A stretch of DNA of 64,000 nucleotides from Moniliella sp. 'wahieum' (taxonomy: Eukaryota): positions 496,001 through 560,000 of the forward strand of contig RSEE01000035.1 in assembly GCA_003971905.1 (NCBI GenBank), read 5' to 3'. The position numbers and the translations under genes were made by a program. The notes under the pieces are model-generated. The model was not told the origin of the DNA. It searched no databases and worked only from the letters and a program-made list of their open reading frames with translations. How positions within the stretch are numbered: position 1 is the stretch's first letter; each line of letters opens with the position of its first letter. Shown piece by piece: positions 1-60,930 of the stretch.

Positions 1-433
1 GCGTAGATCGCCAGCCCTCGTCCTCGTCCTCAGCACTCAGTACTCAGTACTCAGTTCCCCTAGTCCGCGTGAGCCCTCCTTGTGCCGCGCCTCGGTCCCG
101 CCCAGTTTAGCCGCGTGTGATACTGTCCTTCGCCACGCCGCTCCCGTCTCAGCCCAGCCTCAGTTCAGCAGCGTGGGTCCTCCGCTGCCTTCCCCTTCCC
201 CGAGCCCGAAGGCTTCAGACACGCTACTGCCGCCCAAGCCGGTGCTACGCAGCCTTGCCACACTTGCAGCCGCCTCTGCTATACGCCGAGAGGCCTCTCC
301 TTGTCCCTAGCTCCGCAGCGGACCCACCAACCAGCCCAAGCGCGTAACTACCGTGAGTCGTCCTTAGGACCCCAAGGGATTGTACCCCTTAAACCCCCGG
401 GGCGGGCCCCCAGGTGGCGCCCGCCCCATGACA
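1..433 (+). mobile_element. Partial LTR (end of an LTR retrotransposon terminal repeat, truncated by the window start), same family as the solo LTR at 13939-14795
   Basis: Ends in ...CCGCCCCATGACA at 433. Positions ~22-433 align, with divergence and indels, to the reverse complement of 13939-~14270; shared blocks include GGCTTCAGACACG, AACTACCGTGAGTCG and AAGGGATTGTACCCC. Confidence 0.8.
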
Positions 434-2857
434 TCACTGTCGGAGATACTGCATTTGCAGATATGCTACGTGACTGTGGGGCGAATCTTGTCTTTACGCC
501 GGATTTGCAGACCGTGCAGAACCCCAACCCACTCCCCGGCTTCACGTCTTCAACCGTGTTGAATACCAACACCCTTGACCCACCGACACAGGAGGTCAAT
601 GTCATCAACAACCCCCTCTTCTCGTTTGACTGGTCCTTTTATGGTGACAATCCCACCGTCGCGCCGGAGCTGGAAGACAATGACCCGCTCCGAGAAATCA
701 TGTCTCTGACACCGTATTAGGTTCCTGTCCCTCTTTCGTCCTGCTCCCTCCCCCTTTTATCATCCGAGAGAAGGGGGTTGGGCTTAAAGCCTAGGCGGAC
801 TCATCCTATTCTTCCTTGGCCAATTCTCCATCATATCGCCTAGTCATCCCTGGCAGCGTATCTACCGTTCTTTCCTCTAACTTCCTGCGTGGTTTATATG
901 CTTGCCTGTGTGGTGCTTTTTGCATTGATTCTTGTTTGAAGATAAGTTTCCTCTTTTCTTACGCGCTTCCTTTATGCTCTCTGCATCTTCAACGATTGTA
1001 CGAGCTCCAATTCTCACTCCTTGAAGCTCGTCATAATACCAACGCTCACCATCTATACGATGAATTCAACGTCCCCCTCCCCCATATGGCCACGCATTCT
1101 CTTTCCCAACAGAAGCCTTTGTTGATACTGATATCTCACTCATATTGTTGCTTTTTTCATATAAAAGCAGAAGGGACGGTTCTTGCTGTATGGTAGAGCA
1201 ACAGAGATCCCTATACTGTGAGCGTTCCAAACGAAACGAAGGACAAGGCGGCGGCGGGGGATGTGTAGAATGTCAGGCCTGTCAGGCTTGAATTGTGAGA
1301 AACTTCGAGCTCTCGCAACGTGCTGAACGCGTTCAGATCTACATATGTATCCGTGCGGGGCCTGTGGCGCCCTTCCTCGACGGCGTAACAACCGCCTCTT
1401 AGCTGTTCCCAAGACCGGTTGGTGAGAACCGCGCACAGAAAAAGCGCCATCCTCAAATCGTCTCTGATGCTCTCTTCGGTGTGGGCGGCACAGGGCGGTA
1501 CCTGCGGCACCCGTCGCCTCTCCAAAACCACTTGTCCCCATGGTCATCGGTCACATGGCACCTGTAAGATCTAGGACCGACGTTGGCCCGAGCGCCCAAC
1601 GCACTCAGCCACATGTCATAAATGTCACATGTCACAGATCTTAATGAGAGCTTACGCGCTTACATGCTTAATGCTTGCGTGTGTTGGTACCATACACTAA
1701 CATAAATCATTTCTTCGTTTGATCTCGATTCACGTTTCGATTACCACGGCTCTTACAGATCCCGGCGTTGCGTGCCTCTCTGACCAGATAACACAATCCA
1801 CTGCCAGCCCTGTTAAGCGCTGGTGCCCGCGGCGTGGGTCCTAGCGATCTGGATTAGAGTTCCTACTTCGGATTTTTCGGCACAGCTATAATATAAGGAT
1901 CACTCATCGACATCAGTCTCTCTCTCGATATTCAGTTCCTAAGTTAAAGTACTTGCACTGCATATCCATACAGGGACGGACCGGAAACGGTTCGCCCACA
2001 TGCCACACCAGAGACTCACACTGTCAGCGATGGTTCATCCTCATCCGTTGTTACGTGTTGGCGGCACTACCTCATACCACCCAAATTAGCAGTGGCCAAT
2101 AACTGTGTGGCGCCGGCAGGCCCCCCTTGGCGGTTCAGTTCAGCTCAGCCGCTCAGCGCGCTCACCCCCGCCCCGCTCGTCTCAATTTCATATTCACAGA
2201 AGCGCGAGCGGGGAGTAGGATGAAAACGTATATTGATGAACGTGGTGAACTAATACAAGCGATGGGCGATCGAGATGACGGCGCCATCCAGCCTTTCAGG
2301 CCTCGGCCGCTGACCGCTGACCGCTGAAAGCAATTTCCAACAAGATCCTTTGACCTGAAATCTCCTGATGAGGTACTATCCGCTAGCCACTGTTACCATC
2401 AGTTTCTTGGGGATAATATTGGGCACAAGTAGTAGTAGTATGCGCGTGTTGCTGTACTGTGGGTAATATGCATGGGAGTCTCGTCCAAATACCCCGAAGT
2501 GCGATTAGTTATCGTTGTTTGCAGTCCGCAATATTCGTTTGGTGCTCCGTGGACGAGAGTAAAGTGAGCAACCGCGCATCATCCTGGAGAAAGCGTAGAT
2601 ATATGTACTTTGTAGTAGGCTTATCCATGTGACAAAAAGGTCTCTCACTTCTCACTGAAGCCGTCGCTTCGACGAATCTGGTGACTTTGTATGCAGAGAG
2701 GAAGGGATCATCATCAATCCCCCTTTTAGTGCCATAACTAGCCCCCCTCCCCCTTCCACACAATACGTATAGTACCGAGAACGAAGCATGTGGGGCGCAA
2801 AGTATGTGCTACGACTTTCCATTTCTTCTCGCCCTTCCACCTTCTACCACCCTTACG

Positions 2858-2992: not shown

Positions 2993-3802
2993 GGAGCTCC
3001 GGGACTCCTTCAAAGTAGTGTCTGACGGCCTATGTATACGCGGCTCCTGCCTTAGAGGGTCTGAGCTACTGCCCTTGCACGCCGGTAGCCACCCAAACTA
3101 GAGGGTCTCTCCCTTGCCTTATACCCACTCGGTTCAACGGTTCAACGTTCAACCAGGATCTCTGAAGCAGGACCTAATAACGTACGTGGCTCCGATTGGC
3201 CGTCCAAGGGTTTGTGCCCCTAAACTATAGGGCGGTGGGTCGCACCTCGGGCCTCCATGGCACACTCCGGGCACCTTGTTTTCAATATCGGCATTCTGGA
3301 GATAGTCGTTTTGCTTTTGCCAACACGTCATCCATCAGATGATTCTCACATGAATATCATGAATCTAGTCGCGGTACCTATATAGATGCTTTTTGTGGGT
3401 TGGAACCGTCGGTAATCTACACCGAGCGATCTCGTCCGTATCCAGTTTCTCTGTTACGCAAATAGTCATGCCAATCTTGGTGCATATGCCGTCCGGGAAC
3501 GTCAAAACCGTTACAATAAGCAACCATGGTCGCGGTTCATTCTCAGCGCTGGATGAGGTGAACCATGCAGCGGAGAACTATGGAACGCGAAGTATGGAAC
3601 AATAGATTAAGGACCGACATGACGGCATTTGAATCACTCTCAGGCCAGGCCATAGGCCTGATAGTCTCATTTAGGACATCAATGGTAGGTGAGTGAGAAT
3701 GTCCATTAGTCCATCCCGGTATACAGATAGGACGTGGATGGAGAACTTTTTCCTTGACGCGAACGAGTGATGCCATCCATGGCAGTCAAACGCTGCCTTC
3801 CC

Positions 3803-5678: not shown

Positions 5679-7233
5679 TGCCCTCAAGTAATATACCACA
5701 CGAGGTGGCGGGAGCGCCAATGCCTCCCCGTAATCGCTTGTTGATCCTGGCTACGCTTGCACCCCACCGGGGTGCCCTGCTGCTTGCATTCGCTGCGCCT
5801 GCCCTGCTTTGTTCCCATAGTGCATCCGGGAACACGGCGGGCTCCATGTCCCTGACCTTAGGCACCCACTGGCGCTGCCACCGGCGTTTGTTTGTGTACT
5901 GTACCCCCACCCGTGTACCTGCTCCTGGTACGCCTGATGCAAAAAAAAAACCTTTGGAACGCATACTTTCGGACCACATAGCCTCCCCTTGGAGAAGATA
6001 GGGAAAGGCGTTATATTGGCCGCTTTGGCATGTTACTGCCCTGTGTGTATGCGTGAAGCAGATGCTAGTGTGAGACGGGGGTTTCCACTTGATGGCATTC
6101 CAAAGCGAAGGATGTAAGCGCTAAGCCTTCAGAGTTCCTCCCAGTCTCCCCAATCTTGCCGGCATTCTCAGCCTCATCAACGCTACACTCACTGAGGAAC
6201 CCAGCAGGGGCAGGCAGTGTTCATTTGCAATGTGGACGATACTCTACTTGTATGCCTGATGCCTGGCGATAGCGACTGGAGGAGGATGGGTACCTCGAGC
6301 ACCTCGGAGACAGGAAACACCGAGGCGCAGCGGAATATGAATTGCGAGCCAGCTTCTGGTTGCTCTGGGTTAGGGGGACCAGGGACAGGGGTGCCCAGTG
6401 GGTACGCGGGGGATCGCCGGTGATCTTTTCCAGTGACTAGTGGGCGCTGGTGAGAGTGTCGCGAGTGCCTGTGACATGTGACATGTGCATGTGAGCGATG
6501 CAGTGTGCGACACGCTACAGTCGGGCCGAGCAGAGACAGGCAGATGCGCCACTGCCGCTGGAACAATATATGTACGGCAATGATTAATGAGAAGCGGCTC
6601 AGGAAGCCTGCGCGTAGCGCGGTGTGAGGGCTGGTGCGACCTGGCCAGCATTTTGCCTTCTAGTTTGGATCGAGAGGATTGGGCACACTGCCCCCGTGCG
6701 AACGCCTCTTTCAGCCACGTTTGCCACCCGGCCGCGTTGGTTAGCCGGTTCGCCCAGCCCTGATTGCCCGGCAGCACCAGGCCAGTGTCTGCAACATGAA
6801 TATTGATATTACTCGGTAGCGTTCCATAGTCCATGTTCTGAGGGCCGGCACAGTGCCAGTGCCCGGAAGCTTCTTCCCGGGCAGGCCACTGCAGCAGTGT
6901 CCGCCGTATTTGCCCGTGCAGGGGAAATAAAATTACGCATGCTGCATGCAGCCTGGGGCCTGAGGCAGCCAAGGAACCGTCCCGGTCACCGGCCGATCTG
7001 CAGCGCTAACGCTGAGACGCTGCGGCTCAGCACTACAGGCACCCCCTTCTTCCTCGCATGGCGCCAGTCGCGGCAGCGCGCTTGCCCAGTCCAGCCGTAC
7101 CTGCCCATAGACTAGAGTCTCAATCCAAGCCCAACCCAGTCCTCGCAACCTGGTATCGCCCCCTGTCGTTGTGCGCCCTGCTGTGCGCTCCACACCCCCC
7201 GCTTGCTCCCTCTCGCCTCCCCACCACCATCCC

Positions 7234-9520: not shown

Positions 9521-11019
9521 CTTTGTGACTGCGATCACGGTCTTGTTTTGCTTCCCGCTCCCATGCCGCTGCCAGTGGTCCTTTCCCTGGTGCTGGCTTG
9601 AGAGTGCAATGGAATAATTAGAATCAAAGTACCACGTATGAGCACTGCAGTGTGCTGGGGAGGACGGCAGCCCTAGAAGGTTATTGTTTGGTAGCTATAC
9701 TATGGAGGGTTAGGACGAGGAAAACTACGACGGGTGCTGTGAGACCAGTACTTGGGTGAGGAAAGGAATAACCCGATTGATTCAACCCGATCCAGGGAAG
9801 AAATGTTCCTCGCAGAACTACGATCCATACCTAGAAAGAGGGCATGGGATCAACTCATACCGCAAGTCCAACGTGGGGGAAGGAGCTTCCCAACCCTGCG
9901 CCCTGACCGGCGGGATAGGGTCATCAGGGTGGGCTGCCCCCTCCCTCCAAAGAGAGAAGAGGGCAACAAAGAAGCCTCCGTCCCACGCCGTTCTTCTTCC
10001 ACGATCGTAACAGCCAGAGGACCATTGAGGGAACAAAAAATGCCCCGGTCCAAAGCTTGACATGATGGTGGGGAAAGGGAACTGACAAAAGAAAAAAGAA
10101 GATAGAAGGAGCCAGTGCCTACGCACGAGGCAAGAGCAGAGGAGCAAAGGGGACAAAGATGGATGAGAGTCCATTGTTAGTATGTTTGTCTTAGCATGCG
10201 CACTCCTCAGTCCTGATGTCGGAGGGCAAGAAGGTGAGGTGGATAAGGAAGAGCAGGCGGGATGGAGGAAAGAGGAAGAAAATTCCTGTTGCGGGAAAAG
10301 ATAAATAAGCTACCCTGGCCATTCCGCTGGGGCGGAATGCGAAAAAAGTGGAGTTTGCGCTGAGCATTCCAGCGGCGGAGCCTTTCTTGAAACATTTCAC
10401 CACTGGAACCATCTTCTCTTGGAGGTCAGCTTGACCGCTGAGGCGCTGAGGCCTGCTCAGGCGCTCAGGGCTGGCTAAGGCTCAGCCGGTCTCTCGGACT
10501 GCCTCGCCTCCACTTTCAAACCAGACGGAATCGAAGCGCGAATGCCCCTGAGGTTCAGGACGTTCAGGATGCAGGTCCCCCTCAGGCAGGCGACGGCGGC
10601 TCAAGAGGTAGGCTGTGGCCGGCTATTTTGGCGGGCAAGGGAGAGACGGGGCCTAGACATACATTGCACGGGTAGCCAGTCGTCGAGTCACTGGAGTCCA
10701 GACACTAGTCACCAGCGCAACACAACGGAGCCACGCAAGGAAAGGTGGATGTACATATTTCGAGCGAGCGACGGGAATAGGCCTGGGAGGGAGCGACTGC
10801 GTTGGTCCACCGATCCCAACGAGAACAACGCCCAAGAGGGTATCAAGAGGGTGTGAGGACGAAGAGGAAGAACGGGAAAGGACAGGGGAGAGTGCAGCCA
10901 GCGGCGCTGGTTGCGGTGAGTGGGGCAGGCAGCACGAGAGAGACACTTGACAAACGGCACCAAGTCGGCCGGGACAAGAAAAGGTCGTGCCAAGAACCAG
11001 GGGGGCGCAGACCCAGCAT

Positions 11020-12575: not shown

Positions 12576-13938
12576 GGTGGGTGGGCACGAAAACGATCGT
12601 TGCGAGGCGGGAAGGGGGGCGAGTCAAGGAGAGAAAACAAGCGCCAGAAAGCAGCCAGAGGAAGTGGGGACGCTGGGCTGGCAACAAACACAGGAGGAGC
12701 AAGGGCGGCCAAGGCAACGCAAGCAGCACACACACAGTCCACGACAGGTCCAATCCAGCGCGCGCGGATGGGGCAAGGGGGAGGGCGAGAGGAGGGATAA
12801 GCGCAAGCGCAAGCTCGAGCACAAACGCACGCACACGGGTAAGCACAAGCACACGGGCCAAGAGCAGAGGCGGGCTCAGACAGCCTTTGGCCAGCAGCAG
12901 CAGATGGTGGGAGAATGCCCAGCCGTCGTCTCGCACTCACAACGGGGCCCGCGCACCGGTGGCAGGGGCTGGGCCCAACCCTAGCAGCCCACAGCGGTGC
13001 TGTGGCTATTGGTCACGTGCCTCCCTCCGACATGCCACGTAGGCAGTCGTGACTCCGGGCAACCCTAGCGCGTGCGCAGGGCATGGTGCGTGATATGTGA
13101 TCGGTGATCATCGATCAAGGTGATCCCTGGGGCCTGGGCGGACGTTGGAGGATAACACCACAAAAATGCTCTCATGCTCCCGACGTGGTTCGCTGCTCTT
13201 GTTGCTCCCTCTTGCATGTCCATCGCCACCACCACCAGTCGCAAGCACCAATATATTTCAGCACACCGACGCATGTTCCAGCTCCCCTCACTGCGCACGT
13301 TTGGGCACTTCGAGCGATGGGGCTCTGTGGCATCTCTAAGTTGGTTTATCATCAGCTGAGTACACTCATGCAATCGCATATATAGTTTTCGAAGGCAAGC
13401 CATCGAACCCGGGCCTCTCCACTTTTCACGTGGCTGCGTTAAACAGACGTCAGGTATCCATTCAAGCATAGAAGGCTTGCCCCGAGCGCCCAGTCTAATA
13501 CATGCACCTGTCTTCAGCAAGAAATGACGAGATGGCGTCTCATGATGTCTTGGGCTTGAGACCACATTGAATGTCTGTTCGAAAGCCCCACTATAGATCT
13601 TCATCAATCGTCCTGGCCTGAGATTTTCATCCGTATCTTGCCCACTCTCTTTGAACTCGTTGGTAGACGATAGTCTCCCCCATGCCACTGCCATACCGAG
13701 GTTCGACTTGAGGGTCACACAACGGCCACAATCAATCCATATGCAGAGGAGGAGTGACCAATTCTGTTGCTGGGACAAATACCAGGCCTCACAGGGCCCA
13801 GTTCTCCCGTCAATGCAATACACAGAACCAAGGACAGTACCGCTTGTAACGTGCAATGCCATCAGCCTGCTTCAGCACGACAAAAACAAACAAGTTCATC
13901 GTATATTAACCATCACCTCCGTACGTCTCCGTGGTCGG

Positions 13939-16765: not shown

Positions 16766-17671
16766 CAGATGATGTGTTAATGATTGAGGTCATGCTCCCC
16801 GTGAGCTGCATGGACAATCTCTAGAGAGACTTCCCAAAAGCTTCAAGACGGGAGATCAAAGCCACAGAGAGAGAGGGGTCTCAATTCAGATCATTCAGAC
16901 AGGATACTGGGGTCTCGAGGGCGGCTGAGTGCTCAGGCTGAGCATTATGCAGTTGGCTGAGTGCTGTGAGTCTCAGTCCTTAGGAGTCCTTATTAGCCCC
17001 TCGGGCCTCAGACTGGCTCGCTGAGCGCGAGGCGCACCGAGTTTTTCCAGTTGTAGTAACCCTTTTGAAGGCGGAGAGGTGTGGAGCAAGTGGACTGTGC
17101 GGGGTGTTGCCCAACGGGGGTGGGCCTCCAACGGCACGAGGGGTATGTACTTTAGGTGGCTGACAATGCCAGGCTGACGACAGTGGCGCCGGCCTCTGTG
17201 CTGAGGCGCTGAGGGCCTGCTGTGCTGATGCGCGGCGGCACTGCGGCACTGAGGCCTGCCTGCGACGGATGGCTTGGGCCGCGCACAAAGATCGAAACAC
17301 AGAATGTGTTTTGGCCGTCGTCTTATTTGTTGTCAGCATCAGCATCCGACGCGCAATAGCCTCCGTAGCCCATCCTGCTTCCCGTCCGCGCTCAGCGTAG
17401 GCATTGCCGTGCGTGCGGCGCACCCCGACACGCAGAGATGCAGTGGGTACTGAGCACGGAGCATTGCGCGACTCTCTTCCACTCTCGCTGACTCCGCCTC
17501 GGTATCTTCTGTTTCTGTTAATTACCTTTTTGGCCCACATCTAGCCCCTTCCCCGTCTCCGTCTCCTCCTTCGCTCCTCCCTCCTACACTCTCCGCCTCC
17601 TCCCACCCACAGGAGTCGGCACTAAAGAGAACGGGCAACCACATACCTGCTTCTCTGACCTCCCCCACATC

Positions 17672-20640: not shown

Positions 20641-22924
20641 GGCCCTGACCACGGGTCGAACGAAGGTGGGTGCGCTTCAGGCAGAAATGGAACGGGGAGA
20701 AGGCACTGAGGTCGTCGGCCACGTCGGTGCGCAACGTTGCCGTCTGAGCCGCAGCACCGCCAACTTGCGTTGGCCTCGATGGACTCGATGAACGCCGTAC
20801 GCAGGGCCGGCACGCTGCCCAAGAAGCCATGGCGTGCTGCCAAGTGAGGAGCACCCACTACGTACACCTGCAGCGAAGGGCACCTGCTGACATTTGAAAC
20901 GGAATATTCGCTAGCAGGTAATCAACGTATCAACGTAATCAACGTAATCAACTTTGCATGACGTGCATGACGTCACGCCCGCATCAAGATGGCCGTGATC
21001 GACGCGATCGACTACCGATGGCTGAAAATAGTGAGGACATTCTCTGATCAATCTAATCTCAGGTCCACGAGCCCACCCCCACCATCGATTTGCCACCAGT
21101 GTATCGACGAGCCTTTGTCTTATGTCTGAAGAGGCGAATGTAGCATGTGGGTCTGAGGTTCTCAGAAGGGTGGGGACTGAAGCCGAGGTTACCACAAAGC
21201 AGAGGGAGCGTCCAGGCGGATGCACGAGAGGGCGAAGCCCCGTCAGATCTCATCGAGATCATCAGAGAAAACCATAGACATAGTACTAGTGACACTCAGT
21301 CACTAGTCACTAGTCATGGTGCAGGCGTCGCGTGAATGAGGCATTGCGTCCACGCCTTGTCCAGGACATGATGGGGGGCTTTTGACCTTCTTGTCCACCG
21401 TCGTTTATAGCTCCCTCAAGGAGAGGACAAAGAAAGCAAGAATTGCCCTCATCACCGTATCCTCGTTTTCATAGGATGCCACATAGAATCTTTCTCCGCG
21501 GTGTGCGCAGCGTCTGCCCAGGCCGATAGCACCCACATCACCATCACGGGACGCGATTGCGCGGCTCTCATACCCCATAGCACCCATTCGTACAGAAACA
21601 AGGCGTGGGAGAGGGGGGCAGTGCTTTGTGTGGATGACTTATTCTGCATCAATTTTATGAGAACGGTGCATCGTCGCCAGCATCTTACTGAGGCTCGGTC
21701 CCCCCACCTGCTGGCCCAGGGCGACCGTGGTACCATTGCGGCTCAATTGCTCCCAAGGCACCCGACCTGAGGCATATACCGAGTAGAATGGTGCCGAGAC
21801 CAGCCACGAAAGAAAGAAAAGGAGCGCATGACCACACCTACGAGAACCATGCACTGGTGGGGCGCTGCCCCCATCCCGCAACATGATAGCCGCCCTCAGT
21901 TTCCTCTTACAGCTATGAGCGTGTTTCTTACTTGTTAGCGACCATGATGTGCGGTGCTTGCACAACGTTCAAGTGACTATCTCGTCTTTCTGCGATAACG
22001 CCAACTTCTCCTTGCTGACGTCGTGATCGTGCTGGTCCCTAACAGAAGCGTCATCTTGCCTTATGGATCAAAGAGACTGATGGCCACAATTCTCTCAACG
22101 ATGTTGTGAAGACTTCATATCGCCCATCACCTGATGGTACCCCCGTTGAGTGGCCCTCCCCGCCGACCTTTCAATCGTGCTGCTAATCCAAGCCCCCGGA
22201 CTTTGGGCAGTTCAGTTTGCCTTTGCGGCTCTGAGATCTGACAAACGATTGGTAGGGCCATGCGTCGCTGTTCCTCATCATAGTTTCCCTGCATTGGTAG
22301 CCCCGCTGGACCGGGACGGGACGGAGGGGGCGAGGTGGGCTACGTTTGTCACTATGAGGCCTGAGGTGAGGCGTGCGAGCCGGGTGAAGTGGGCCTGCAC
22401 AGGGTGGGCGAATGCTCATCCTCCTGGTCCCTCCTACCTCGATCCCCCGTTTCTTCCCCTTCATCACCTCCATCTGTCAGCGGGTGAACCGAGGCAAATG
22501 TACATCGAATCAAGTTTCACACGCCAGAACCGAAAGAACAGTTGTGGCCAGTGTTGGTCGCGTGGTATTGGCTAAAGAAAAGAGGGAGAAGTGCGGACAT
22601 GATGACAGAGCGGAGAGGGAGTCGAGCGGGGGGGAGGGGTTCGAAGCAGATGCGATCAACGAGAAAAAAGAAATGGGGAAAAGGCAGGCAAAAAAAAGTA
22701 GAGGGGGAAACAAGTTCGCTGGCCAGGCGACTTGTCCGAGGCGGAGTGGGGGGCCTAGTTCCGATGGTGGGAGTGTCTGGGGTCGTAGGTTGGGTGCGCA
22801 AGGCACGTGAGGGTGAACGGCACCGAGATGGGGGCCTGGAGGGGGAGGGGGAGGGGAGGGGGGAGGGGGGAATGCAGTGGATCAATGAGAGAGGGATAGC
22901 ATATGGCTAGATCACCCTTCGACC

Positions 22925-23572: not shown

Positions 23573-25768
23573 GGCGAGACGAGCGGCGTAGCGTGGGGAG
23601 GGGGGGAGCGGGCACTGGTGTGCGCGAGACCAGCACGATACGAGGCGGGCGTGGGAGCGGGAGGAGGGGCTGTCGGGAGCGGTGGTGGCCGCGGGGGAAG
23701 AGGAGGCGGGGTGGTGGTGGTGTGGGTGGAGCTGGAGTAAGGAATGAACGCCCCTAGGCCAGGCCCGGAGCCTGAGCGGCTGAGCGGCGGCAACGACGGC
23801 CGCGGCGGCGCTGCTGCCACCCACACCCGATCGCTGAGCGATGCGTGATGGCCATGATGGCAGTGCGCAGGCGATCGGTGCAAGCGGACACTGCGGTCCT
23901 GTGCCTGCCGGCCGCAGGATCCGCCGCTGATCGCCCGGATCGATGGCTGATCGGGCGCCTGGCCGCTTGCCCAAGCAGCGCCTTGGCGCGACTGTGCTGG
24001 GGCCACCGTCACGCGTCACGCAGCACGCGTCACCCGCCCACCCCCAGTATCAGCCGCCCCAATCGCATCTGCCAGTCACTAGTCACCGGCCACTGGTTCA
24101 CCGTCACGTCACGCGTCACGGCAGCAGTGCTCAACCCTAGCGGCACTAGCCCAGCCCCAGCGCGGGCGGGCCACCCGCGGCCCACCGAGGTACTGAGTGA
24201 GTACTGAGTACGCTGCGTGCCCAGACCGACGCCTGAGCCGGGCGCACCGCCTCGACAGAAAGGCCAACCTGTTTCTCTCCGAAGAGTGCTGCTGGTCCAC
24301 AGCGTGCACGGTGCCCCAACCGGTGGGTGTGCCCTCGTCTCACCTCATTCGTCCTTGCTCTTCACCAGTCCGCCTCGGACGTTCAGAATTCAACTCATCC
24401 TGCTATCGCCTCACAGTCCCCTCTGGGAACGCCTCTCCTTTTGCCCGCGGTTCTTTCACTGGCCGTGCACTATAATGGAGAGAGATCTGTCGTGGGCCTC
24501 GAATCCGGTGGGTGTTTCATAGAGCTTCTTCAACTGGCCCTATGGCGCTTCCGCCTACGGCTTAGGTCGCTTAGGCCCTCACAACAATATCCCGGGGCAT
24601 AGTGTGCCTTGCGCCCAGGCTCCGAATTGGTCACTTGGTGCTGCGTTGATCGCAAGGCAGGAAAACATGCAAGATGGAAAGCGGTGCATGTGGGTGGTAA
24701 TAATATGCGGAGTTGGGGGGACCGGGGCAACAAGCAACCGCGGTGCATGGCGGCGGCGGCCCGACACGGGTCCGGTTTTTGCCAGAGTGGTCGGTAACAC
24801 TCCGATCGCCCCTGGTAGCCCCTGTGTTGCCATGCGGTATGAATATGCCGAGGTTATATCCTGAGCTCGCTGTTGCGATTGAGATAAGAGCTGCGCCATG
24901 GTGGCTCTGTTTTTTTTAGCTGTTCACTTTCTTTTCAACCAAGTCTGGGAAGGACCCTTCTTGGCACTGTTATTCTGTTCAAGCTTCAAGCTGCTCCACA
25001 CTCAAAAGGGGATCCCGAGCAACAGGCCTGGACAATATCGACTCACTGGCTGTTTCTTTGAGCTCCCACGCACGGTGGGTCGCTCCCTACTGTTACGGAA
25101 CAAGACTCGGCTCACATGCTGCCCACGCGTCTTTGATGAACTTGGAGTTGATCGATGATGTAACACCCTATAGGACCGAACGAGGCCCCACCTACTAGTG
25201 CCTTCTTCGCTCATATCAGTAAGCTGAGTGACGATGTAGTCGCCAAAAGCCCGATGGGTCGTGCCATGTAGTCTCCATGATCGATGATCAGGACGACGGG
25301 GATATGTTCACCGCCCAGAGCATCCGGTCTACTAGCGCGAACGGGACCAACAGCACTGGCTTCTCCCTCGAAGCCCACCCGTTTCCCCCCGCGTTTGCTC
25401 CCCCTCTCCGTGTCTCTGGAGTCAAGCTTCAAGCTTCACGTGACTTTAGCTTCACTGGTCACTTGGTAGTCACTCGTCACTGTGTGCTGATCGACGGGCC
25501 GCGTCGATCGATGACCCCCAGACCAGCCTGAGCGGATGTCCTGTTTCCACAAGCCAGAGTGCGACGTACTAATGCTTTCCGCATCCTGTCCTTTCCCACA
25601 CACCACTGTCTGTCCGCCTGGGGCGTTTTATCTTCACTCTCCGCGTCACATGTCACAGCCCTGTGAGCCGGCGCGGCGCTCACCTGACCTCAGGCCTCAC
25701 TACTGTCGGCCAGGGAGAGACTCCAGGCCAAGGGGAAAGGGCGACCCCAAGCAAGTATGCGTGTGCAG

Positions 25769-27255: not shown

Positions 27256-28397
27256 GGCGCAGGGGGCGGCGCAGGGGGGGCGGGCGCGGGGGGAGGAGGC
27301 GAGGGCGAGCGGGGTCGGCTGGGCGGAGGATGGAGGAGGATGGCGTCTGTCCCCAGCACCAGCCAGCGCCCACCTGCTCCCGCCCGCAGCCCGCCAGCGG
27401 CCTGGGGAACGCGACGCGATCCACACCTGGGACTCGGAACCAGGCACACTGGCCCCGTGCACCCCCCGCGCGCAGACGCGTCGGCTGCTGCCCAGTGAAA
27501 ATTCCGAATCGCAGACGCAGTGCCGCGCGATCGCGGGTAGGCACGGGGGCAGTGCCACGCCTTTTCTCGCGCAACCCGCGTGATTGGTTCAACGTTCAGA
27601 CGTTCAGGTCCAGCCTGCCCGCCCACATCCCGAGTTCCATCCGCCGCGTGCAACCGCAGCCACCTCCAACCACCGCCACGCCACCGCCACGCCCACCACC
27701 ACCACCTGCGCGTCGGCCGCACCCACCACACACCTCGTGGGGACAGGTGCCCGCGGCGGCTGCCCACGCGGCAACCCTGCCCATCGACAACACGCATGCG
27801 CCCCCGAGGGGACACGACGTGCAGCGGCCGGCACTGTCACCGCTTGATCACACGCGCTGGCACGGCGCGACTCGCGTGCGCACGCACGCTCCAGGTAGGG
27901 TTGTCGCGTTCGAGTATATTGCGAGCCCCGGTTGGCATCCAGCCCTCCAGCGCGGGGGCAGTCCACCACGCATCGCATCCGTCGGGGCACGCGGGCAGTG
28001 CAGCGGTGTTGACCGTTCTTCTAGCTCGGCCAGTCTTCTGCCGCCACGGACCACGGCGCATCCGTGGGGTACATAACCCCCTTCGCTCCAGCCCCACCTC
28101 CTTGCCGTCCCGATGAAGGTGGAGGGATGTGCTGCGTACCATGCGCACCCTTTCTCCTGGTGTGCGCCAACGCAAGCGGGGCGGGCTGTCGTCAGTGCAA
28201 ACAGCGTTGTCCGCGCGTCCTTTTCCTGTGCCTTGTTGCAATCGAGAGTCTCTTCTACTGAACTGCATCCTGGGTAATCATCCAGTGGGTTACCTTCTTC
28301 CCCATCTAGGAACTACGTCTCCACCCATCGTCCTCCCAGCCCGTCCTCCTGTCCAAGGCAAGGAAAGTGTGGATGGGTAAACCATTTTATTTTACTA

Positions 28398-37000: not shown

Positions 37001-38260
37001 CCGGATCCCCTGGCTGTATCGGCAGCCAACTCGCTGCATCTGCTTGCGGTATCATCACCCGTGCCCGCACGGGAGGCGCTCATTCAAGGCGCGATCGACG
37101 CTCTACCCAGTGTTTTACTAGACTTGGGAGCAACGAAAGAGGCCATCGCATTTACTTTCCCGCATACTGTGGGTGGGACAAACGCATATCCCACACCCTC
37201 TTCTGTCCAGGACAAAGGGACCGTGCTTACTCGCCCTGAGCGTGCCATCCGCTTGGCCCGGGTGTTCGACATGGTGCAATGTGCGGCGCGATTGTGCCAC
37301 CCGACCCCCGACAGGGTTGACTTGGCTGTGCTGTGTACGTCTGGGTATGGACCCATTCGAGGCGCCAATAGCCCGCTGCCGCGCTCTCTGCCAAGAGTTG
37401 GTCGACGGGCTACGGCCAATGGCGATACCAGGACAGGGATGAGCGCTGAGCAAGTTGACCTACTGCTTCGCCGTACTTTGCACTTCCTTTCCCTTTCCCC
37501 CTCACCGAGGTCTACTTTGCTGCTGTGCACTTGCTCCCAATCAGCTCGGATCATGGCCGATCGATGACACGACGAGTGGCTGCGCGCTGCCTTTTGTCCG
37601 ATACGGACGACGCTTCTTGCGCATCCACCTGGGGTGCCAATACCGATCCCGACGCCAATACCGATACCGATACCGATGCCGACGCTGTCACCGTGACGCG
37701 CTTGGCGATCCTGTCAGAACAAGCGGCCCACAACCCACTCGCATCTGGCAACCCTTACGCCTCCCAAGCGTCGGCCAACGAGCAGCCCGACTGGGCGCAG
37801 ATTCGCGCGCCGCCGCGCACCTCACCTCCTTTGTCGTGGGCGATGTAGCGGCCTTGCGCCCTGGTCCCAGCCGAGGCCCTGCACGCGCTGGCCTGCCCAA
37901 GTCTTCCGGTGCGCCGAGCATCTTGACCGACCTTGCTCCGACCGACACAGGCACGCAGGGCACCCCACCCGTACCCGTACCCGTACCCGTACCCGTACCC
38001 GTACCGGTTCCTGGGCCGGTGTCGGCGCAGCAGGCCGCGCTCATCCGTCTCGAGGCCGCGCTCCGCTTACAGAGCGGAGGCATTACTGACAACAATGGGG
38101 CGGTGCTGGAAAAGTCGTTGGCGCGCGATGCGCTGCTTCGTACGTCGCTCCAGTTGCGGTACCTTTTGCGAGCGGTGGGCGCGACCCAGCGCGGCATCGT
38201 CTAGCCATTTGGACTTGTTGGTGCACCGTGCACTTCTACTTGGCCGGCTTGGTTCATAAA
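34084..38260 (+). CDS. Large hypothetical protein (long disordered S/P-rich N-terminus, helical C-terminal region); multiple frameshifts, end approximate
   Basis: Chain of plus-strand ORFs (34084-35619, 35828-36118, 36127-36420, 36432-37121, 36767-37567, 37455-38204) with protein-like composition. Likely intron near 36797-36876 (GTATGT..CTGAC..CAG). Confidence 0.55.
37967..38004. repeat. (CCCGTA)n hexamer microsatellite encoding a PV repeat
   Basis: About 6 perfect copies of CCCGTA. Confidence 0.85.
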
Positions 38261-38867
38261 GACGATGAGGAGCGCTGGCTGCTGCAGCAGTACTACTCTC
38301 TTACATCCTGCTCCCGTTTTCCTCTTCCCCCTGGCAATGGGAATTGGGTGTTCCCATGCACACATGTAGCGGTCTGGAATGGTTGTGTCGGTAAAAGACA
38401 GAGGGAGATGATGGATACTCTGTGGGTTATACAAACAAAGGAACCACCCTCCCCACCAAACGCACAGGTTTACATGGTCGCAGAAAGTAAGTGTGACAGG
38501 CCAATAAGGTTACTCGAGAAAGGGAAACTAAGTGCCTAGTATGGATGCAGATGATTCTGAATAGTCCGACATATAATACAGCAGCCAAGCGTGGCCCTTG
38601 AATCACACGTCCCTTGACGGGAAGAGAGGTGGGCCCAACCTGGTCAGTGAGGAGTAAGGAAGCAACTAAGAAGCAGTCGTCCATACACGGATTTGCCGCG
38701 AGTGCTTGGGTGCTCGAGTCGTCTATTTGCTGTGGGCATAACGTACAACATATGCAATCATGGCATTGGGGCAAAGATGATCGATGAGGGTGGATATCAA
38801 CAGATGCAGTGAGATGGATGTCGGAGGTGGGAAGAGGAAAGCAGGGAGCGTACTGCCGAGCTCAGCG

Positions 38868-41194: not shown

Positions 41195-42314
41195 GCTCGT
41201 AGGCGGTCTGAGTGGGGATGAGGCAAGGAGGTAGGAGGTAGGAGGGCGGCGCAGAAGGAACCTTACATCTTATACCCGGCCCGCACCCGCATCGAACCGA
41301 GATAACTAGTTACTTTTGGTATTGTATCCGCCCCGGTGTGCGCTATATAACCGCCGCCGATATTTAGCCGTCCCCCGCCGCACCTGGCCACTGTCCAAAA
41401 TCAGCCGCTGTCTGACCAGTGCCATGCTGCCGCATGGGACACTGCCGCCCTGCCTGGGTGATGGCAGTGTGACAGGCGACACCCCATGGAAATTACCTCA
41501 TCGATCATCTCGATCATCGGAGCCAGCCAGAGTGCCCAGCCCTTGAACTACCCAACGGAGCAAGTGTTCTACTACTGGCTTGAAGCTTGACGTCCGCCCC
41601 ATTCCCTGGCGCCAGTGCCGGTCGGGGCTGAGGCGCTGGGGCTCCTCCGCCTGGGCTGGCCGTGGGAGCGTGTGGCGTTGGGTGTGTGGTCCTGGGCCGT
41701 CCTGGACCTGTGGGGTGCAGCAGTGGTGCAGCTGACCAGCACTCCATTATGCACGCTTTGGTAACAAACTCAAATGTCAAGATTTGCCCCAGCCCCCCAT
41801 TGCGGCAAATTTTGCCTCGCCTTCCCACAACCCCGACGGATCTCACTTCTCACTCTTTATCTCATCTCCATCCATGCTCGGATCTCTCATTTCCGAGCTT
41901 GCCTCTTTGCCACGGAGTCTCTGCCAATTGACTACTTGCCTTTCCTCCGACCGATCTTCTTGGTTAATTCAGACATGGCCTTGGCAGAACTAACGAGGGA
42001 GGGCATAGGAACTCGCCTACGCCAGCCGCTCCGCTCTATCCGGCGTTTGCTGATACCAGCCCACCCTCGTAATCCAGGGGTCATGTGATCGATGATCCAT
42101 GGCATTTGAAATTTGACATGTGAAGCCGCAGTGCCCAGTACTAGAGTGCAGTGGAAATTCCGCTCATGTTCCGCACCCGGTGCCACCCTTTTGAAATTAC
42201 GTCATGGTTGCATCCACCGATTTGGCGACGAACTGCGATTTTTTCTTCGCCCCGCTTGCCCTCCCCACCCACCCGATCCAGACACTCTCCACCAACAGCC
42301 CACCTTTGCCCTCC

Positions 42315-45864: not shown

Positions 45865-48171
45865 GCCCTTGTCGCTCTACTGTCGATCTTGTGCCTCTAC
45901 AACTCTGTGTTCTGCATCCCCTTCGCTATTGTTTCCTGCGGCTTGCATCCTGTTATAGTCTCTCTCCATTTCCAGCCATGATGGGAAACCACATGCCCTA
46001 GCACGGTCATCCTTTGGAGACTGAATTGCATGGTATCATCGTCCTCAGTGCCAAACATTGCCACTGTTCTTAAGCATTGCTATTAGGGTTTTGTCTAACT
46101 GATCGATCTCACCTAGAGGTGTCGGCCACCAACATGTGGAGAGTCATTTTTGTCGAAGCCAATTAACTTGAGCTGTATGAGCACACCTGCTGATGTACTA
46201 CTACGATTACCCAAGAGCGTAAAGTGAAAGTGAAGATCCATCGGCTCACGGTTGGCGAGAACATCCAACTGTTCACCAAGCGAAACGCGAAGGAAGAACC
46301 GACGGAAGAGTCGCGGGGATGAGAAGCCAATTGAGGTTGGGGAACCACGAGAGCCACAAGAACGCTGAGCTCAGCACCCGTTTAATGTGATTGTTATTTT
46401 TCCGTCAAAAGTTGCCAGCAGCACCTTGAGCTCCGACTCCATAACATTCATGCCGCCAACTTTTAGTCAGGGACGTAAAAAATAACTTGCCCACATCAGA
46501 TGCTGCTCAAGAATCCTCATCTCCCGCGTTGAATTGGCGTCATCTCTCCATCAGGAGATTAATGGCGCCACCAGCAGGTCAAGCCCCTCTGCCCCTCCCA
46601 TATACGGATCAGCATGGTGTGAATGTTGAGGTATCTCTTCTATCAGACTAGTTTTCTATAGTTCTTTCTGTGATTCAAACAATTTCTTCCACACTCTCGC
46701 CGATGACAGACTTTACCCTCGCGACCACATGACAGTCACAGTGGCTTTTAGGACCAATGTTGGTGCTGAATGTGTCTCTGTGGTACTTGACCTTCGTTCA
46801 GTTCCCGTTAAATGAGCGACAGTGGTGCAGAAATCTCCCTTCGCCCTCTTGCGTCTTCTCCGTCGAGCCGTGGACCTAATATCGTCGCGTTTTTGCCATC
46901 GGAAATGAACGCCTCCTTCATCGTCCTCAACGAACCCCTCAAGTTCCTGTAGTCCATCTCCATCCCCCTGATTCATCGGAATTAACGCACCTGCCAGTCT
47001 TACCATTCCCTAACCCGTCGAAGGCTGCCAGTGGTCAACAGCCTGTGCGTGGCAGCTTCTCCCGAAGGCTGTGATCAAAACTGTACAGCTTCTCCTGTAA
47101 CTCATGCTTACCCTTACTCACCCCGTTCTCACCTCCGTGACCGTAGAAGCACCGGGGCTCAAGCGATGCTCTCACTGGTGTATTCATACTCACAGCAAAA
47201 CGAATAGCGTAGTGCATGCTGAAGGGAAGCTTGAAGCTTGAAGCTCCAAAATTCGGACTTCATGCTTTAAGCAATTTAAGCGCCAAGCCCTCTTCACCAG
47301 CTTCGCCCCCACACAGATTATCAACTTATGGGTGTACGAAGCGCGGGGAACGTGACATGGACCATTCTCCCGCGCTAACCCCTCCGCACTGCCCCACGAC
47401 TGTGATGAACTAAAGAGCGTTCAAAACGTCACCATGCTATGATCGACGTGATCATGTTTTTGGGTAGAGTCACCATGTAACCCAAAGCCCATACGGCGCT
47501 TAGCGTCTGGCGCTTAGTGATTGGCGTTTATTGGAGGTGGCGAGAGAGAGATAATCGAAAAGGAAGCGTCTGTAGTCCATGGCTCAAGAATATATTAGAC
47601 AGTGGTGCGCACCAGTACGAATTTTTTGTTCATGTCGATGCGGTTGACACTTCCAGCAGTGACGCAGTGCCCCGCTGTGGCTTCGTTGGTGCAATTTTGA
47701 GGTAGGCACGGGGGCAGCGCGGGGGCGGTAGGCTGGCTGTCCCGACCCCGCATGGGGGCAGCCGACTGTAGTCCTCATATCACTCAGTTCAGCGTTCAAG
47801 CTTCGAGGGAGGGTGTGCGCTCAGGCTGAGCCCAGGCGCCAATTGGCCAGTATACAATACGGGCGAGATAAGTGTCGATAACCAGTAACTCGCCACTGTA
47901 GTAATTAGCGAGGTTGCCTACACAGACCAGCGATGACGCTCTGTGCCCAAGCCCCGTATCAGCTACGAGTCAGCTATCTTTCGCTCAGCCCTCAGGCTGA
48001 GCTCACACTCCAGCACTCGAGCACTCTACCCAAGCATCGGTGCTTCAACCGCCGAAAAGAGAGGTCTAAGCGCCAGCGTATTCGTTTTGCGACCGCCCGT
48101 ATCGCATCGATATCCTCAAGAGTAGGTTGAGCAATGTACCATTGCCATGGTGTAGACTCCGGAAACACAGG

Positions 48172-48178: not shown

Positions 48179-48318
48179 GTAGCTTACATTGGCTTGCGCT
48201 TGCTGTCTCTCATCAACCTCACCTGCACACACGTCTTGACCAACTCTCTCCACTGCCTCCTATCACTTCCTCTTCCTCCCACCCATCATCCCCAGTGCCG
48301 CATTATTCTCTCAGGAAC

Positions 48319-49537: not shown

Positions 49538-50915
49538 ATGTGAAGTTGCGTACTCTGCATTCATAGACGCGTTCGGTGTACCATCCTGATTGGCATTTAC
49601 GCCTGTCCCTTCTTCCTCCCCATTCCCCTTCACCGCAATTGTGTTATATGTTCCAATTAGCAGCGTTCTTACCGCTCATGCCTGTCGATACCAACAACCA
49701 ATTGAAGCCAAATCATTCCAAGGAAATGTGACTCGAAGGCGGATCGGTAGTGCCATCCATCTCGATCTTGGGTCCCTTTCGCTGGCGGCGAACGGAAAGG
49801 GTCTTTGATGGAAAGGGGAGGGGGCGGGGGAGGAGCGCAGCAGATATCCGATCGATGAGAGTGTAATAGCCGTGCGTTCGTCGTCGTTATCATTATTAGT
49901 GGGACCTTTAATTGTATAATTTAACGCGCAGCACCAGGGCAACGCGCTTAAAAATCCTCTACCGTATCTCTGTTATCTGCAAGAATATTGATTCGATAAG
50001 CCCCGTTCGATCAAGATGACCGATGAAGGATCGATGAAGCTTGAAGCTTTGAAGCTTGGAGTTGATGAAGTCCATCCGGGTTTTCTAGTTCAACACGTTC
50101 AACAGGCGGGGGAGCGTATTCTCATTCAGGTGGAGGTACCTTGCATGTTACAGGGGATTTCTATAGTAACCGTCCTGTCCACCTCAGGTCAGTCAGTTTC
50201 ATCCTGCATCCCGAATCTATCGTCGTTCAAGCTTGATGATGGGATCATGCAACCTGCAGATGTCTCTCCTCCCGAACGGGAGTTCAAGCGGCGGTGTGTT
50301 CTTCAGCACATCGCTTCTGTACAGCCTCTGTATCTAACTACTAAGCGAGGGGGCCAACGGGCCTACGGCCCGGTCTTTCTCTCCAGTCTGTTCCTTAGCA
50401 ACCGTTGCGCCGCTCCACGCCGCGAGAGGCAAAACCTATCACCAATGTAACGTGCGGGGCTGGCTGCGTTCCCTAAACGAGGTTGGCGCTAACAAGCAAC
50501 ACGCGTCGGATTAACGGGTCGGTTTAGGCGCAGCGTTTCTTTGTCCCAGCCTTAAGCTCTGTCAATAATATGGTTACAGTATAGAGATTCGGGTCTAGAG
50601 ACCTGCGCCTGTTCTCTCTCCGTCGAGGGTGAAGGTGTCAAAAGCATGCTAATTAAAGCATCGAGCACTGGTGGGCTCCTGTGGCGGGAAAAGAGGTAGA
50701 GTATAATGCCATCAGTCGTGAACGTGTGAAGCCCATATACAAGACAGAAGCCTCTTCAAGAACGACAACCGATAAACCCGAATGCTCGACGGCCACGCCT
50801 GCGGAGGCTTCAGATCTCGAGGCGCGTGCATGTACCTAAGGAAGATCATTAATCTGATCAATATACCAGCAGAGGAGAGCTGTTATCCTTAGGGAAACAT
50901 GTAGGTATTGGTGCC

Positions 50916-58485: not shown

Positions 58486-60930
58486 TGCTGGTAAAACAAG
58501 GGGTAAGGGAGTGGAAGTGGAAGGAGAGTGCAAAGGTACGTTTTATGTAGTGGAGAGAAGATCACGCGTGCCGGTTGCTTCTAGCTTCGTAGGTCTAACT
58601 TCTAGCTTCCCGCTTCCCGGCGAGGCAAGGCCAGGCCTGGCTGCGCTGGAAGTATGACCGGATGTGGTGACATTCTGACATGTGGCACGCGACACTAATC
58701 CCCTCTCTCCTACCGCGGGGGGAGGCGGTGCGCTGGTTGAGTACCGAGTGCGTTGAACGAACGTTGAGCGTACCTTGGGCGCTGAGCGCGCTGAGCACGG
58801 AGGCGCTGAGGCAGTGAGATGGTGAGACCGAGATCTGAGATCTGAGATGAGATCTGAGAAGAGGCCTGCGGCTGGAGAGAGTGGGCTGCACCCACACCAA
58901 CACTCCGGAGGCCGATCGAGGAGGTAGGGGACAGGAGGTAGGAAGGTGTGGGACGGCGCGGGCGATGCCTGATAGACGATGGCTGATGCAGGTGATGGAA
59001 CGGAGCAGGCACACGATGGCGTAGCGAAATGGTGGGCACAGCCGCTGCGCCGCGAGCTGCTCTGTCGATGCGACAGTCAACAAAAAAACCTGCCGTGCTC
59101 CAGAGCCACGACCACTGGCCCCATGCGGGGACCGGCAAACCACAGGATCGATGATGCAACGATTGATGATGCCTGTGATGCCTGTGACATGGGATGCATG
59201 ATGCCTGTGACATGTGATGGGTGGCCACGCAGGTGCTGGGTGCTGCCGTGCAGGGCGCATGCCAGAGTCTGTCCGGCGGGAGAAAAGGTGCCGCGGGGGC
59301 ACTGCCAGTAGGGCACCCAAGGGTAGTTCGGTTGGAATACACACCGCTGGCGCACGCCTTTTCGATCCAGCCAGCAGATCCATTCGCCCTCGATCATCAA
59401 TCTTAATCATCGCTATCGATCTACCGCGCGCCCTTGGGGCCCATTCTCAGACGCTAGGGGGTGGGACGGGCTAGGGTGGGTTTCGTGGTCTGCGGTCTGC
59501 CCTGTTCTTTCGCTTAGGATCTAGTAACTACGGTACTTTCGACCTGCCATAAGTATACTTTTCGCCTAGTTCAAGAGCGTTCACAAGGTTTAAGCGTATT
59601 CTCAAGCTTCAAGCTTGGGCGGTCAGAGGCTCTTAGTACAACGTTCACTAGATGTTCACAGCTGAGTCCCTCCCATAAGCCGTTCTCATCGACGTCATAT
59701 ATGTCCTCTGTCACCTGCATCACACATGCAGTATGCACTCCCCAGCTTTTTGTGGAAGCAGAGAGGGAGCATCACCATGTGCATCACCCCGGCACCAAGG
59801 GGTTCAAAAGCTAGTAACTATAGTAGCTAGGAACTAGTAACTACAAAGCATCCGAGTAATACGACACGTGTTGTATAACAACAACGCAGGATGTGTGACA
59901 GCGATGCAACACAGATCCACTCCTTCTCGTCGATCCATACGGTTCATGCATTATGCATATGATGCAGCAATGCAAAGCCGTGGTGAACGACGACTGACTA
60001 GTGATTAATGATTAGTTCACTTCGCCCCCTTTTCTTTCTCCACAAACCACTCCGCATCCATCCCCAGAGGGCTGGATTTTCCACGTCGGTCCTTGTCCCT
60101 TCGTGTAAATTCCCTCATTATGCATCAACGTTCAACACGTTCAACGTTCAACAATGAATTGGCCTGTCCAATCCATTCTTACCTGAATTCAATGAGATTC
60201 AAATGCGGCATCATGCATCAGTAACAGTCTGCCTTTCTGTACTCTCCGTACGTACACACACACATCCCTGGGGCCTGGTCCCAGTTGGTACCCGGTGGCA
60301 CCTCCGGGTTCCCCCGTGTTCCTGGCTCTTTCCTCAGGCCTCGCCGGTCGTACCTCCAACGCCACCACCTTCACCGTTTCCTCCCTCCTCTCCGATCTCT
60401 TGGGAGAGGGGGAAAAACAGCTCAGTATACGAGTCCTGAGTGACTAGTGACTGAGTACATTAGCTGTGGCCAGCATGCAGCACTGCAGCCGAAATGCATT
60501 GTCTCCCGCAGATACTGAGTATGGAATATTGAATCTGAGTCCGGACAGGTGACGTATGGCTGACGGAATATAGGAAGAATCCCACAGGACAGGGGACAAA
60601 AACTGCCCACACCCGGCAAAGAAGATTTGGATGTGGGCCTGTGTGGCCAGGCGGTGCGGCGTCGGCGAAACAGAGACATGGATATGCCGGCGGCCCAAAA
60701 GAGTCTCACACGTCACGCGTCACGCGTCCCGACACACGTTGCACTTCCATGCACCATGGCGCCTCCAGCGGACCCTTGATGTACGAGGCTTGTACAGGCT
60801 GTACCAGTGCTGTGCCCTCCCAGCTGGACCTGTTGAGCACCCTTGTGCACCCTGTTGCATCAGACTGCATCCACGGTCTAGCATAGCATGCATAGCAGTG
60901 GCCGGTGGTACAAAAAGGGACAGCTTCCAG

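Follow-up and report, generated by a model that had tools for sequence, protein, structure and literature searches.

TSA-palindrome-TSA units in a fungal contig as probable excision scars of a hairpin-forming transposon

We analyzed a stretch of 64,000 nt of contig RSEE01000035.1 (hereafter, the window), and all counts given below come from this single stretch unless stated otherwise. The window contains many short units in which the trinucleotide TSA (S is G or C) stands on both sides of a 4-bp palindrome. Judging from their structure, these units are probably the excision scars of a cut-and-paste transposon that forms hairpins on the flanking DNA and duplicates a 7-bp target centred on TSA. 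We infer the transposon, the hairpins and the nuclease that would open them from the anatomy of the sequence together with published biochemistry. Such a scar set is a known kind of feature, but the present one is unusually clean, dense, uniform and diagnostic.

Units and their flanks

A unit was defined as an exact TSA-(4-bp palindrome)-TSA with the same anchor on both sides. The window held 47 exact units in 41 loci. An earlier note on this DNA had listed 44 positions, and every one of them was an exact match; the three units beyond that list are at 6797 (ATAT), 22232 (GATC) and 37440 (GCGC). Fourteen of the 16 possible 4-bp palindromes were in use, TATA and CCGG being the missing ones, and the spacer was palindromic in 47 of the 83 same-anchor TSA-N4-TSA 10-mers.

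The earlier note had claimed that palindromic spacers are enriched beyond chance and that the TGA anchor and the 7-bp spacing are conserved, and both claims were borne out. In Markov simulations of 100 runs each, the mean unit count was 1.84 at order 1, 1.7 at order 3 and 3.4 at order 5, and the maximum was 9. The spacer was palindromic in 24 of 43 cases with TGA as anchor and in 23 of 40 with TCA, as against at most 6 cases with each of the other 62 trinucleotides. As for spacer length, 6 of 26 spacers of 2 nt and 4 of 52 spacers of 6 nt were palindromic, and there were none at 8, 10 or 12 nt; these other lengths were not enriched. Unlike anchors (TGA...TCA) enclosed a palindromic spacer only twice. 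The observation of the units was thus confirmed as real and highly significant.

In what follows, a prime marks the complementary base, and L, R and LR denote a flank match on the left, right and both sides. The dinucleotide next to the unit was identical to one half of the palindrome in 42 of the 47 units, against about 6 expected by chance. The match was on the left only in 13 units and on the right only in 15; 14 units matched on both sides and 5 on neither. Reverse complementing the left form gives the right one, so the two are one structure, xy-TSA-y'x'-xy-TSA, and the 7-bp periodicity usually spans 12 bases rather than 10. Compared with a site ab-TSA-cd, the unit carries a net insertion of 7 bp, consisting of a direct copy of 5 bases and an inverted copy of 2, so that its full reading is ab-TSA-b'a'ab-TSA-cd. 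Two was the sole common inverted length. The palindrome is therefore a by-product of the flank-copy structure and not an independent feature.

The extended 12-mer, xy-TSA-y'x'-xy-TSA, occurred in 56 copies on both strands, against 0.1 in the simulation, and a further 37 copies had one mismatch, against about 5 expected. As control DNA we used 80 metagenome loci that encode distant relatives of the dihydrouridine synthase (Dus) of the window, all with at most 49% protein identity; a metagenome scan with the Dus protein alone gave no relative, and one with an alignment gave these 80 loci, none of them close. The 12-mer was found 7 times in the 629,534 control bases, compared with 56 times in the 64 kb of the window. 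Because it is so scarce in the control DNA, the pattern is neither a general property of DNA nor a trait of fungi at large. Our literature searches found no description of a TSA-palindrome-TSA motif. A (TGAATCG)n heptamer of Ustilago maydis, which the earlier note had named as a possible relative, was not confirmed either: the literature matches, in the passages of PMC2219887 concerned, are PCR primers that contain the string.

The scars, their 8- and 9-bp variants, the plain duplications and the copies with a TGG anchor are as follows.

35..55, scar array (ACTCAGT)x3, target AC-TCA-GT palindromic, two units LR
1623..1636, scar TGTCACA x2, LR
3140..3153, scar GTTCAAC x2, LR; 8-bp variant GTTCAAC-G-GTTCAAC from 3132
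6470..6483, scar TGTGACA x2, LR; partial third copy next to it
6579..6590, plus strand, scar AA-TGA-TT-AA-TGA, one-sided L
6797..6806, core unit TGA-ATAT-TGA, flanks unmatched
13106..13117, plus strand, scar GA-TCA-TC-GA-TCA, L
21243..21252, core unit TCA-GATC-TCA, flanks unmatched
21298..21316, scar array AG-TCA-CT-AG-TCA-CT-AG-TCA, LR/L
22230..22241, plus strand, scar TC-TGA-GA-TC-TGA, L
22355..22366, minus strand, scar TGA-GG-CC-TGA-GG, R
24007..24020, scar CGTCACG x2, LR
24074..24085, plus strand, scar AG-TCA-CT-AG-TCA, L
24107..24120, scar CGTCACG x2, LR
24198..24209, minus strand, scar TGA-GT-AC-TGA-GT, R
24979..24990, minus strand, scar TCA-AG-CT-TCA-AG, R
25149..25158, core unit TGA-TCGA-TGA, flanks one mismatch off a match
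25278..25289, minus strand, scar TGA-TC-GA-TGA-TC, R
25422..25438, scar array TCA-AGCT-TCA-AGCT-TCA
25646..25657, minus strand, scar TCA-CA-TG-TCA-CA, R
25688..25699, plus strand, scar CC-TCA-GG-CC-TCA, L
27587..27598, plus strand, scar GT-TCA-AC-GT-TCA, L; degenerate third copy next to it
31701..31719, scar array (TGATGCA)n, 5' edge of the G-patch/GCFC gene reading frame
37440..37451, minus strand, scar TGA-GC-GC-TGA-GC, R
38776..38787, plus strand, scar GA-TGA-TC-GA-TGA, L
41498..41518, minus strand, scar TCA-TC-GA-TCA-TC, R, then 9-bp variant GATCATC-TC-GATCATC (41503-41518)
41579..41590, plus strand, scar CT-TGA-AG-CT-TGA, L
42086..42097, minus strand, scar TGA-TC-GA-TGA-TC, R
42105..42123, abutting scars TT-TGA-AATT-TGA-CATG-TGA; second without flank match
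47230..47243, scar CTTGAAG x2, LR
50035..50046, minus strand, scar TGA-AG-CT-TGA-AG, R; more degenerate copies next to it
58834..58859, two scars of TC-TGA-GA: LR, then R
59206..59217, plus strand, scar TG-TGA-CA-TG-TGA, L
59602..59613, minus strand, scar TCA-AG-CT-TCA-AG, R
59995..60013, abutting scars TGA-CTAG-TGA-TTAA-TGA-TT; first without flank match
60125..60152, compound locus of GT-TCA-AC: R scar, 9-bp variant GTTCAAC-AC-GTTCAAC (60130-60145), LR scar
60209..60220, plus strand, scar CA-TCA-TG-CA-TCA, L
60439..60452, scar AGTGACT x2, LR
60711..60724, scar CGTCACG x2, LR
1271..1286, 9-bp variant TGTCAGG-CC-TGTCAGG, non-palindromic target; the 2 nt complement the left copy's end
3349..3364, 9-bp variant CATGAAT-AT-CATGAAT
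10553..10568, 9-bp variant GTTCAGG-AC-GTTCAGG, non-palindromic target
16884..16899, 9-bp variant ATTCAGA-TC-ATTCAGA, non-palindromic target
20918..20952, period-9 array (GTAATCAAC)x4, AATCAAC + GT repeated
20957..20972, 9-bp variant CATGACG-TG-CATGACG, non-palindromic target
50088..50103, 9-bp variant GTTCAAC-AC-GTTCAAC
58781..58796, 9-bp variant GCTGAGC-GC-GCTGAGC
2143..2157, 8-bp variant GCTCAGC-C-GCTCAGC, 1 inverted nt
10437..10469, 8-bp variants GCTGAGG-C-GCTGAGG and GCTCAGG-C-GCTCAGG
17200..17214, 8-bp variant GCTGAGG-C-GCTGAGG, opens a degenerate period-8 array
2309..2322, plain 7-bp duplication GCTGACC x2, non-palindromic
2643..2656, plain 7-bp duplication TCTCACT x2
41841..41854, plain 7-bp duplication TCTCACT x2
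13126, 28421, 60267, 60747 and 1996, 12-mer copies with TGG, e.g. CC-TGG-GG-CC-TGG

The duplicated target

We enumerated the junctions of targets U = ab-TSA-cd, allowing 0-3 inverted bases to be added or 0-3 bases to be trimmed at either end. In the dominant junction, two inverted bases were present on one side and two bases were lost from the other. Rarer junctions showed the full nnTSAnn duplication split by 2 or 1 inverted bases (U-2nt-U and U-1nt-U), and these included non-palindromic targets. When U was centred on TSA, the insert was the reverse complement of an adjacent end in 10 of 10 two-base and 5 of 5 one-base cases; the simulated counts for these classes were 0.00 and 0.07. For 7-mers not centred on TSA, reverse-complement inserts were found in 11 of 81 two-base and 14 of 28 one-base cases, which is the chance level, so the former, 9-bp duplications with an inverted insert, were not scored as scars. 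Non-palindromic TSA-centred 7-mers were also duplicated plainly (U-U) in 3 cases. In addition, Tandem Repeats Finder detected many short arrays with periods of 7, 8 and 9 in the same regions.

These results indicate that the target duplication is 7 bp. A duplication of 3 bp or 5 bp is ruled out by the U-2nt-U and U-1nt-U junctions on non-palindromic targets. A model of a 5-bp duplication with two inverted nucleotides on one side only likewise failed: non-palindromic targets carry full 7-bp duplications, and the two mirror forms are a single structure read from opposite strands. The target was directly duplicated on both sides of the junction, as 5-bp repeats in the dominant form or as full 7-bp repeats, and in 42 of the 47 units the bases at the junction were, like P nucleotides, reverse complements of the neighbouring end of the flank.

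Two further arrays were observed. At 16673-16743 there is a period-11 array of about 6 copies, in which the spacer between TGA anchors, TATG-TCGA, is one mismatch away from the TATA-TCGA predicted for a scar that retains both overhangs; perhaps the array is an expanded form of a rare 11-bp scar, or it may be unrelated. At 60928-60972 there is a period-9 array, (CAGCAGGTA)x5, which fits a duplication with 2 inverted bases and is not centred on TSA. Such cases without a TSA centre are at the chance level.

The choice of target was narrow. By anchor, the 12-mer was found 30 times with TCA, 26 times with TGA, 5 times with TGG and at most 3 times with every other trinucleotide. Sites centred on TWA were spared, with 1 event against about 16 expected from the number of sites. 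The 5 events with TGG correspond to roughly one-tenth of the per-site rate and are well above chance; they suggest that the third target position is relaxed. No preference beyond TSA was visible in 28 reconstructed empty sites. Palindromic 7-mers were the target at 13 of the 41 loci, compared with 8.4% of the other TSA sites.

Origin of the units

We think that the units probably arose as follows. The element would insert at nnTSAnn, where TSA always takes the middle position, and duplicate 7 bp (ab-TSA-cd). On excision, the transposase would leave closed hairpins on both flanks; since the palindromes are even, the tip of each hairpin would coincide exactly with the edge of the duplication. 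A Pso2/Artemis-type nuclease of the host would then nick each hairpin 2 nt 3' of its tip, giving duplex ends ...ab-TSA and TSA-cd... with self-complementary 4-nt 3' overhangs, cdd'c' and b'a'ab. These overhangs of equal length would be ligated opposite each other by end joining, with each 3' end abutting the recessed 5' end of the other side, so that neither synthesis nor trimming would be needed. Finally, replication of the heteroduplex, or removal of one overhang after the first ligation, would fix one of the two mirror forms, ab-TSA-b'a'ab-TSA-cd or ab-TSA-cdd'c'-TSA-cd, with a net gain of 7 bp.

Such a course of events could account for the main features of the units. The joining of two 4-nt overhangs would explain the fixed gain of 7 bp, the exact 4-bp spacer that is always palindromic and the lack of other spacings, and TSA would appear as an anchor because it is the centre of 2+3+2. 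The flank relation would follow because half of the palindrome comes from the opened flank hairpin, and the near-equal numbers of left and right forms (13 vs 15) because either overhang can be fixed. Where hairpins are opened or joined less regularly, the rarer 9-bp, 8-bp and plain 7-bp duplications would result. A palindromic target (cd = b'a') would yield truly cohesive overhangs, which may explain the excess of such targets.

Pso2 is reported to open hairpins 2 nt 3' of the apex and to be responsible for over 95% of repair following Ac/Ds excision in yeast (PMC3299998). The V(D)J coding joints made by RAG and Artemis resemble the scars: the hairpin tip coincides exactly with the boundary and is cut roughly 2 nt away from its centre, which leaves a self-complementary 4-nt overhang and 2 inverted nucleotides (PMC3299998). 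V(D)J recombination, however, duplicates no target and produces variable joints with deletions and N additions, whereas the two ends here share the same 7 bp and are joined in almost the same way every time.

Excision via flank hairpins classically leaves the target duplication in place, with short inverted copies of the flanks at the junction. Flank hairpins are formed by hAT, Transib, RAG and the Mutator-like Muta1, by the same chemistry that produces P nucleotides in V(D)J recombination. In hAT elements the first nick falls 1 nt into the flank, which leads to complement-type or odd footprints. The footprints of Ac/Ds and other hAT elements are like the present scars in that the target duplication is kept on both sides and inverted flank copies come from opened hairpins. 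Unlike them, however, the palindromes here are even, and the 3-nt junction of the hAT type is absent (1 observed vs 0.47 simulated). Moreover, hAT duplications are usually 8 bp according to PMC12730594, whereas here there is a 7-bp duplication with a strict TSA centre and one dominant outcome. The putative element departs from canonical hAT members in both the 8-bp duplication and the 3-nt junction. The best-known fungal hairpin family therefore does not fit unless it is modified.

Mutator-like elements (MULEs) usually have target duplications longer than 7 bp, and no MULE transposase was seen in the window. The Muta1 transposase is like the supposed one in forming hairpins on the flanking DNA; its product holds both flank strands in full, 43+43 nt (PMC5499845), which we read as a hairpin tip at the boundary. 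It differs in that more than 90% of its excisions in yeast are precise (same paper). Among the literature found, 7-bp duplications in basidiomycete groups are given only for hAT7 of Pucciniales and Kyakuja of Laccaria (PMC12730594). These two share the 7-bp duplication with the scars, but the passages on them report a TSA-centred target for neither and leave their excision chemistry undescribed. Kyakuja termini are 5'-CA..TG-3', without inverted repeats. The KDZ elements of Cryptococcus have 8-bp duplications according to the preprint 10.1101/2024.08.15.608186. PIF/Harbinger, with a 3-bp TWA duplication, does not agree with the 7-bp duplication and the sparing of TWA-centred sites.

Several points weigh against the excision of a hairpin-forming transposon as the source. 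No transposon copy was found in the window and no transposase domain in 151 open reading frames (ORFs), and pairs of terminal inverted repeats next to TSA or inside identical 7-mers were at the chance level in these 64 kb. The evidence comes from one 64-kb window of one genome. The outcome is far more uniform than the known excision footprints of hAT or Mutator elements, and the odd palindromes that the hAT nick predicts are no more frequent than chance would give. The form that keeps both overhangs (an 8-bp spacer with two palindromes) was absent (0 of 41). Five units have no flank match, and the five TGG-anchored copies mean that the anchor is not absolute. The excess of palindromic targets may reflect a preference of the transposase just as well as cohesive overhangs, because partial complementarity of the overhangs brings no advantage; it showed no enrichment (4/28 and 7/28 matches).

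The lack of an element or transposase in the window, together with the very strict target and the very uniform outcome, would also suit a host nuclease or a domesticated transposase that makes staggered, hairpin-ended breaks centred on TSA, so that repair writes the units with no resident mobile element. We regard this as unlikely, since two hairpin ends with the same 7 bp need a prior duplication, which the integration of a transposon gives and a simple staggered break does not, and since a missing element in 64 kb is weak evidence if the element is of low copy number. It is also doubtful that a transposase-derived hairpin nuclease retained by the host, or a kind of element not yet described, repeatedly breaks and reseals TSA sites in intergenic and promoter DNA; if so, 7-bp palindromic insertions would be written continually and would form a built-in source of regulatory variation. 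Errors of replication without a double-strand break, namely template switching or slippage at short quasi-palindromes that yields inverted-plus-direct micro-duplications, are improbable in our judgment. The products do contain a direct and an inverted copy of the local sequence, and arrays of 3-5 copies could grow by slippage. However, a stem of 2 bp with a 3-nt loop cannot stabilise a switch, the strict TSA centre, the fixed 7-bp duplication and the inverted length of exactly 2 are left unexplained, and the control DNA of other organisms is without the pattern. The earlier note had suggested a hairpin or template-switch repair process; this was partly supported, in that the units look like a 7-bp duplication rejoined with P nucleotides from opened hairpins, but the flank relation, that duplication, the 8- and 9-bp variants and the excision of a transposon had been missed.

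The other suggestion of that note was a factor that reads the symmetry or shape of DNA; the units would then be a functional cis element in which TGA half-sites 7 bp apart are recognised together with spacer symmetry or DNA shape. The intergenic placement of the units, often between divergent genes, is in its favor. But the palindrome is not free, because the spacer copies the flank, and this resembles a product of repair and not a binding site; the variants with periods of 8 and 9 bp follow the same rule of inverted copying, and the units decay like neutral DNA. We therefore consider the reading of DNA symmetry or shape unsupported and very improbable. Footprints in the style of Tc1/mariner, with a 3-bp TSA duplication and 2 nt from each terminal repeat forming the palindrome, are scarcely credible. 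Their layout is superficially alike (duplication, palindrome, duplication), and Tc1/mariner and Stowaway elements do leave a small duplication with a short palindromic insert at the donor site (PMC4561436). Their insert, however, comes from constant element termini and their duplication is TA, whereas here the anchor is TSA and the insert comes from the host flank and varies with it. Fourteen different palindromes cannot come from one constant terminus, half of the palindrome equals the neighbouring flank in 42 of 47 units, and full 7-bp duplications occur; a 3-bp duplication with element termini was rejected by the flank relation.

Returning to excision scars, we counted about 60 perfect events of all classes, besides the 37 one-mismatch copies, in the roughly 35 kb of the window that are likely non-coding. 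A low-copy mobile element can leave far more scars than copies, and a modest hopping rate over a long time suffices. The mixture of perfect and decayed copies indicates that the activity of the element was long-lasting and probably recent as well. If this origin is correct, these roughly 35 kb would preserve a natural archive of roughly 60 perfect and about 30 decayed excisions, and a single transposon family would, through its scars, rank among the chief sources of the small insertions and the 7-, 8- and 9-bp mini-arrays in a compact genome. It would also provide evolutionary evidence in vivo that a basidiomycete opens hairpin ends 2 nt from the tip and joins the resulting overhangs to each other, and would point to an element whose TSA-centred 7-bp target is unusually strict, no such element being characterised in the literature found. 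What looked like a regulatory code would become a simple diagnostic, xy-TSA-y'x'xy-TSA; counting it in any genome would reveal the past activity of the family.

Scar positions and gene content

ORFs supported by Pfam cover 18,328 bases (28.6%) of the window and contain 442 of its 1,797 TSA sites (25%). Only 1 of the 41 scar loci (31701/31708) was in such an ORF, at the extreme 5' edge (binomial P(<=1 of 41) = 1.4e-4), and none of the 8- and 9-bp variants was; the units at 13108 and 27589 are inside long ORFs without a family match. Scars would shift the reading frame of genes and so would survive outside coding sequence only, and selection against frameshifts agrees with the avoidance of Pfam-supported ORFs. 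An element that prefers to insert into intergenic DNA would give the same distribution.

The window is GC-rich (0.51-0.67) eukaryotic DNA. Its genes are ordinary housekeeping genes, which encode a nitrilase, ribosomal protein S5/S7, a bZIP protein, a LIS1-type WD40 protein, a Ras GTPase, a G-patch/GCFC protein, Dus, proline dehydrogenase, a DRG GTPase, NAPRTase, Nab2 and an MFS transporter. Among named relatives, those closest to the Dus protein come from Ceraceosorus guamensis (53%) and Tilletiaria anomala (51%), and the G-patch protein has 36% identity to that of Pseudozyma flocculosa. Judged by these protein comparisons, the fungus is a member of Ustilaginomycotina with no close named relative.

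Other repeats were also seen. Segments of about 300-380 bp at 66-445 and 13935-14241 form an inverted pair, 77-96% complementary and 13.5 kb apart, and each overlaps a long ORF without a family match. Because housekeeping genes lie between them, the pair more likely represents a gene start that was duplicated and inverted than the termini of an element. Local tandem duplications of 190 bp (9148-9520) and 102 bp (19054-19259), with 2 copies each and 87% matches, are in CT-rich DNA 3' of ORFs. The hexamer arrays (ACCCGT)x6.5, (TCTGCC)x9 and (GGGCGA)x9, at 37967-38005 and 62104-62211, are inside long ORFs without family matches and are probably coding low-complexity repeats.

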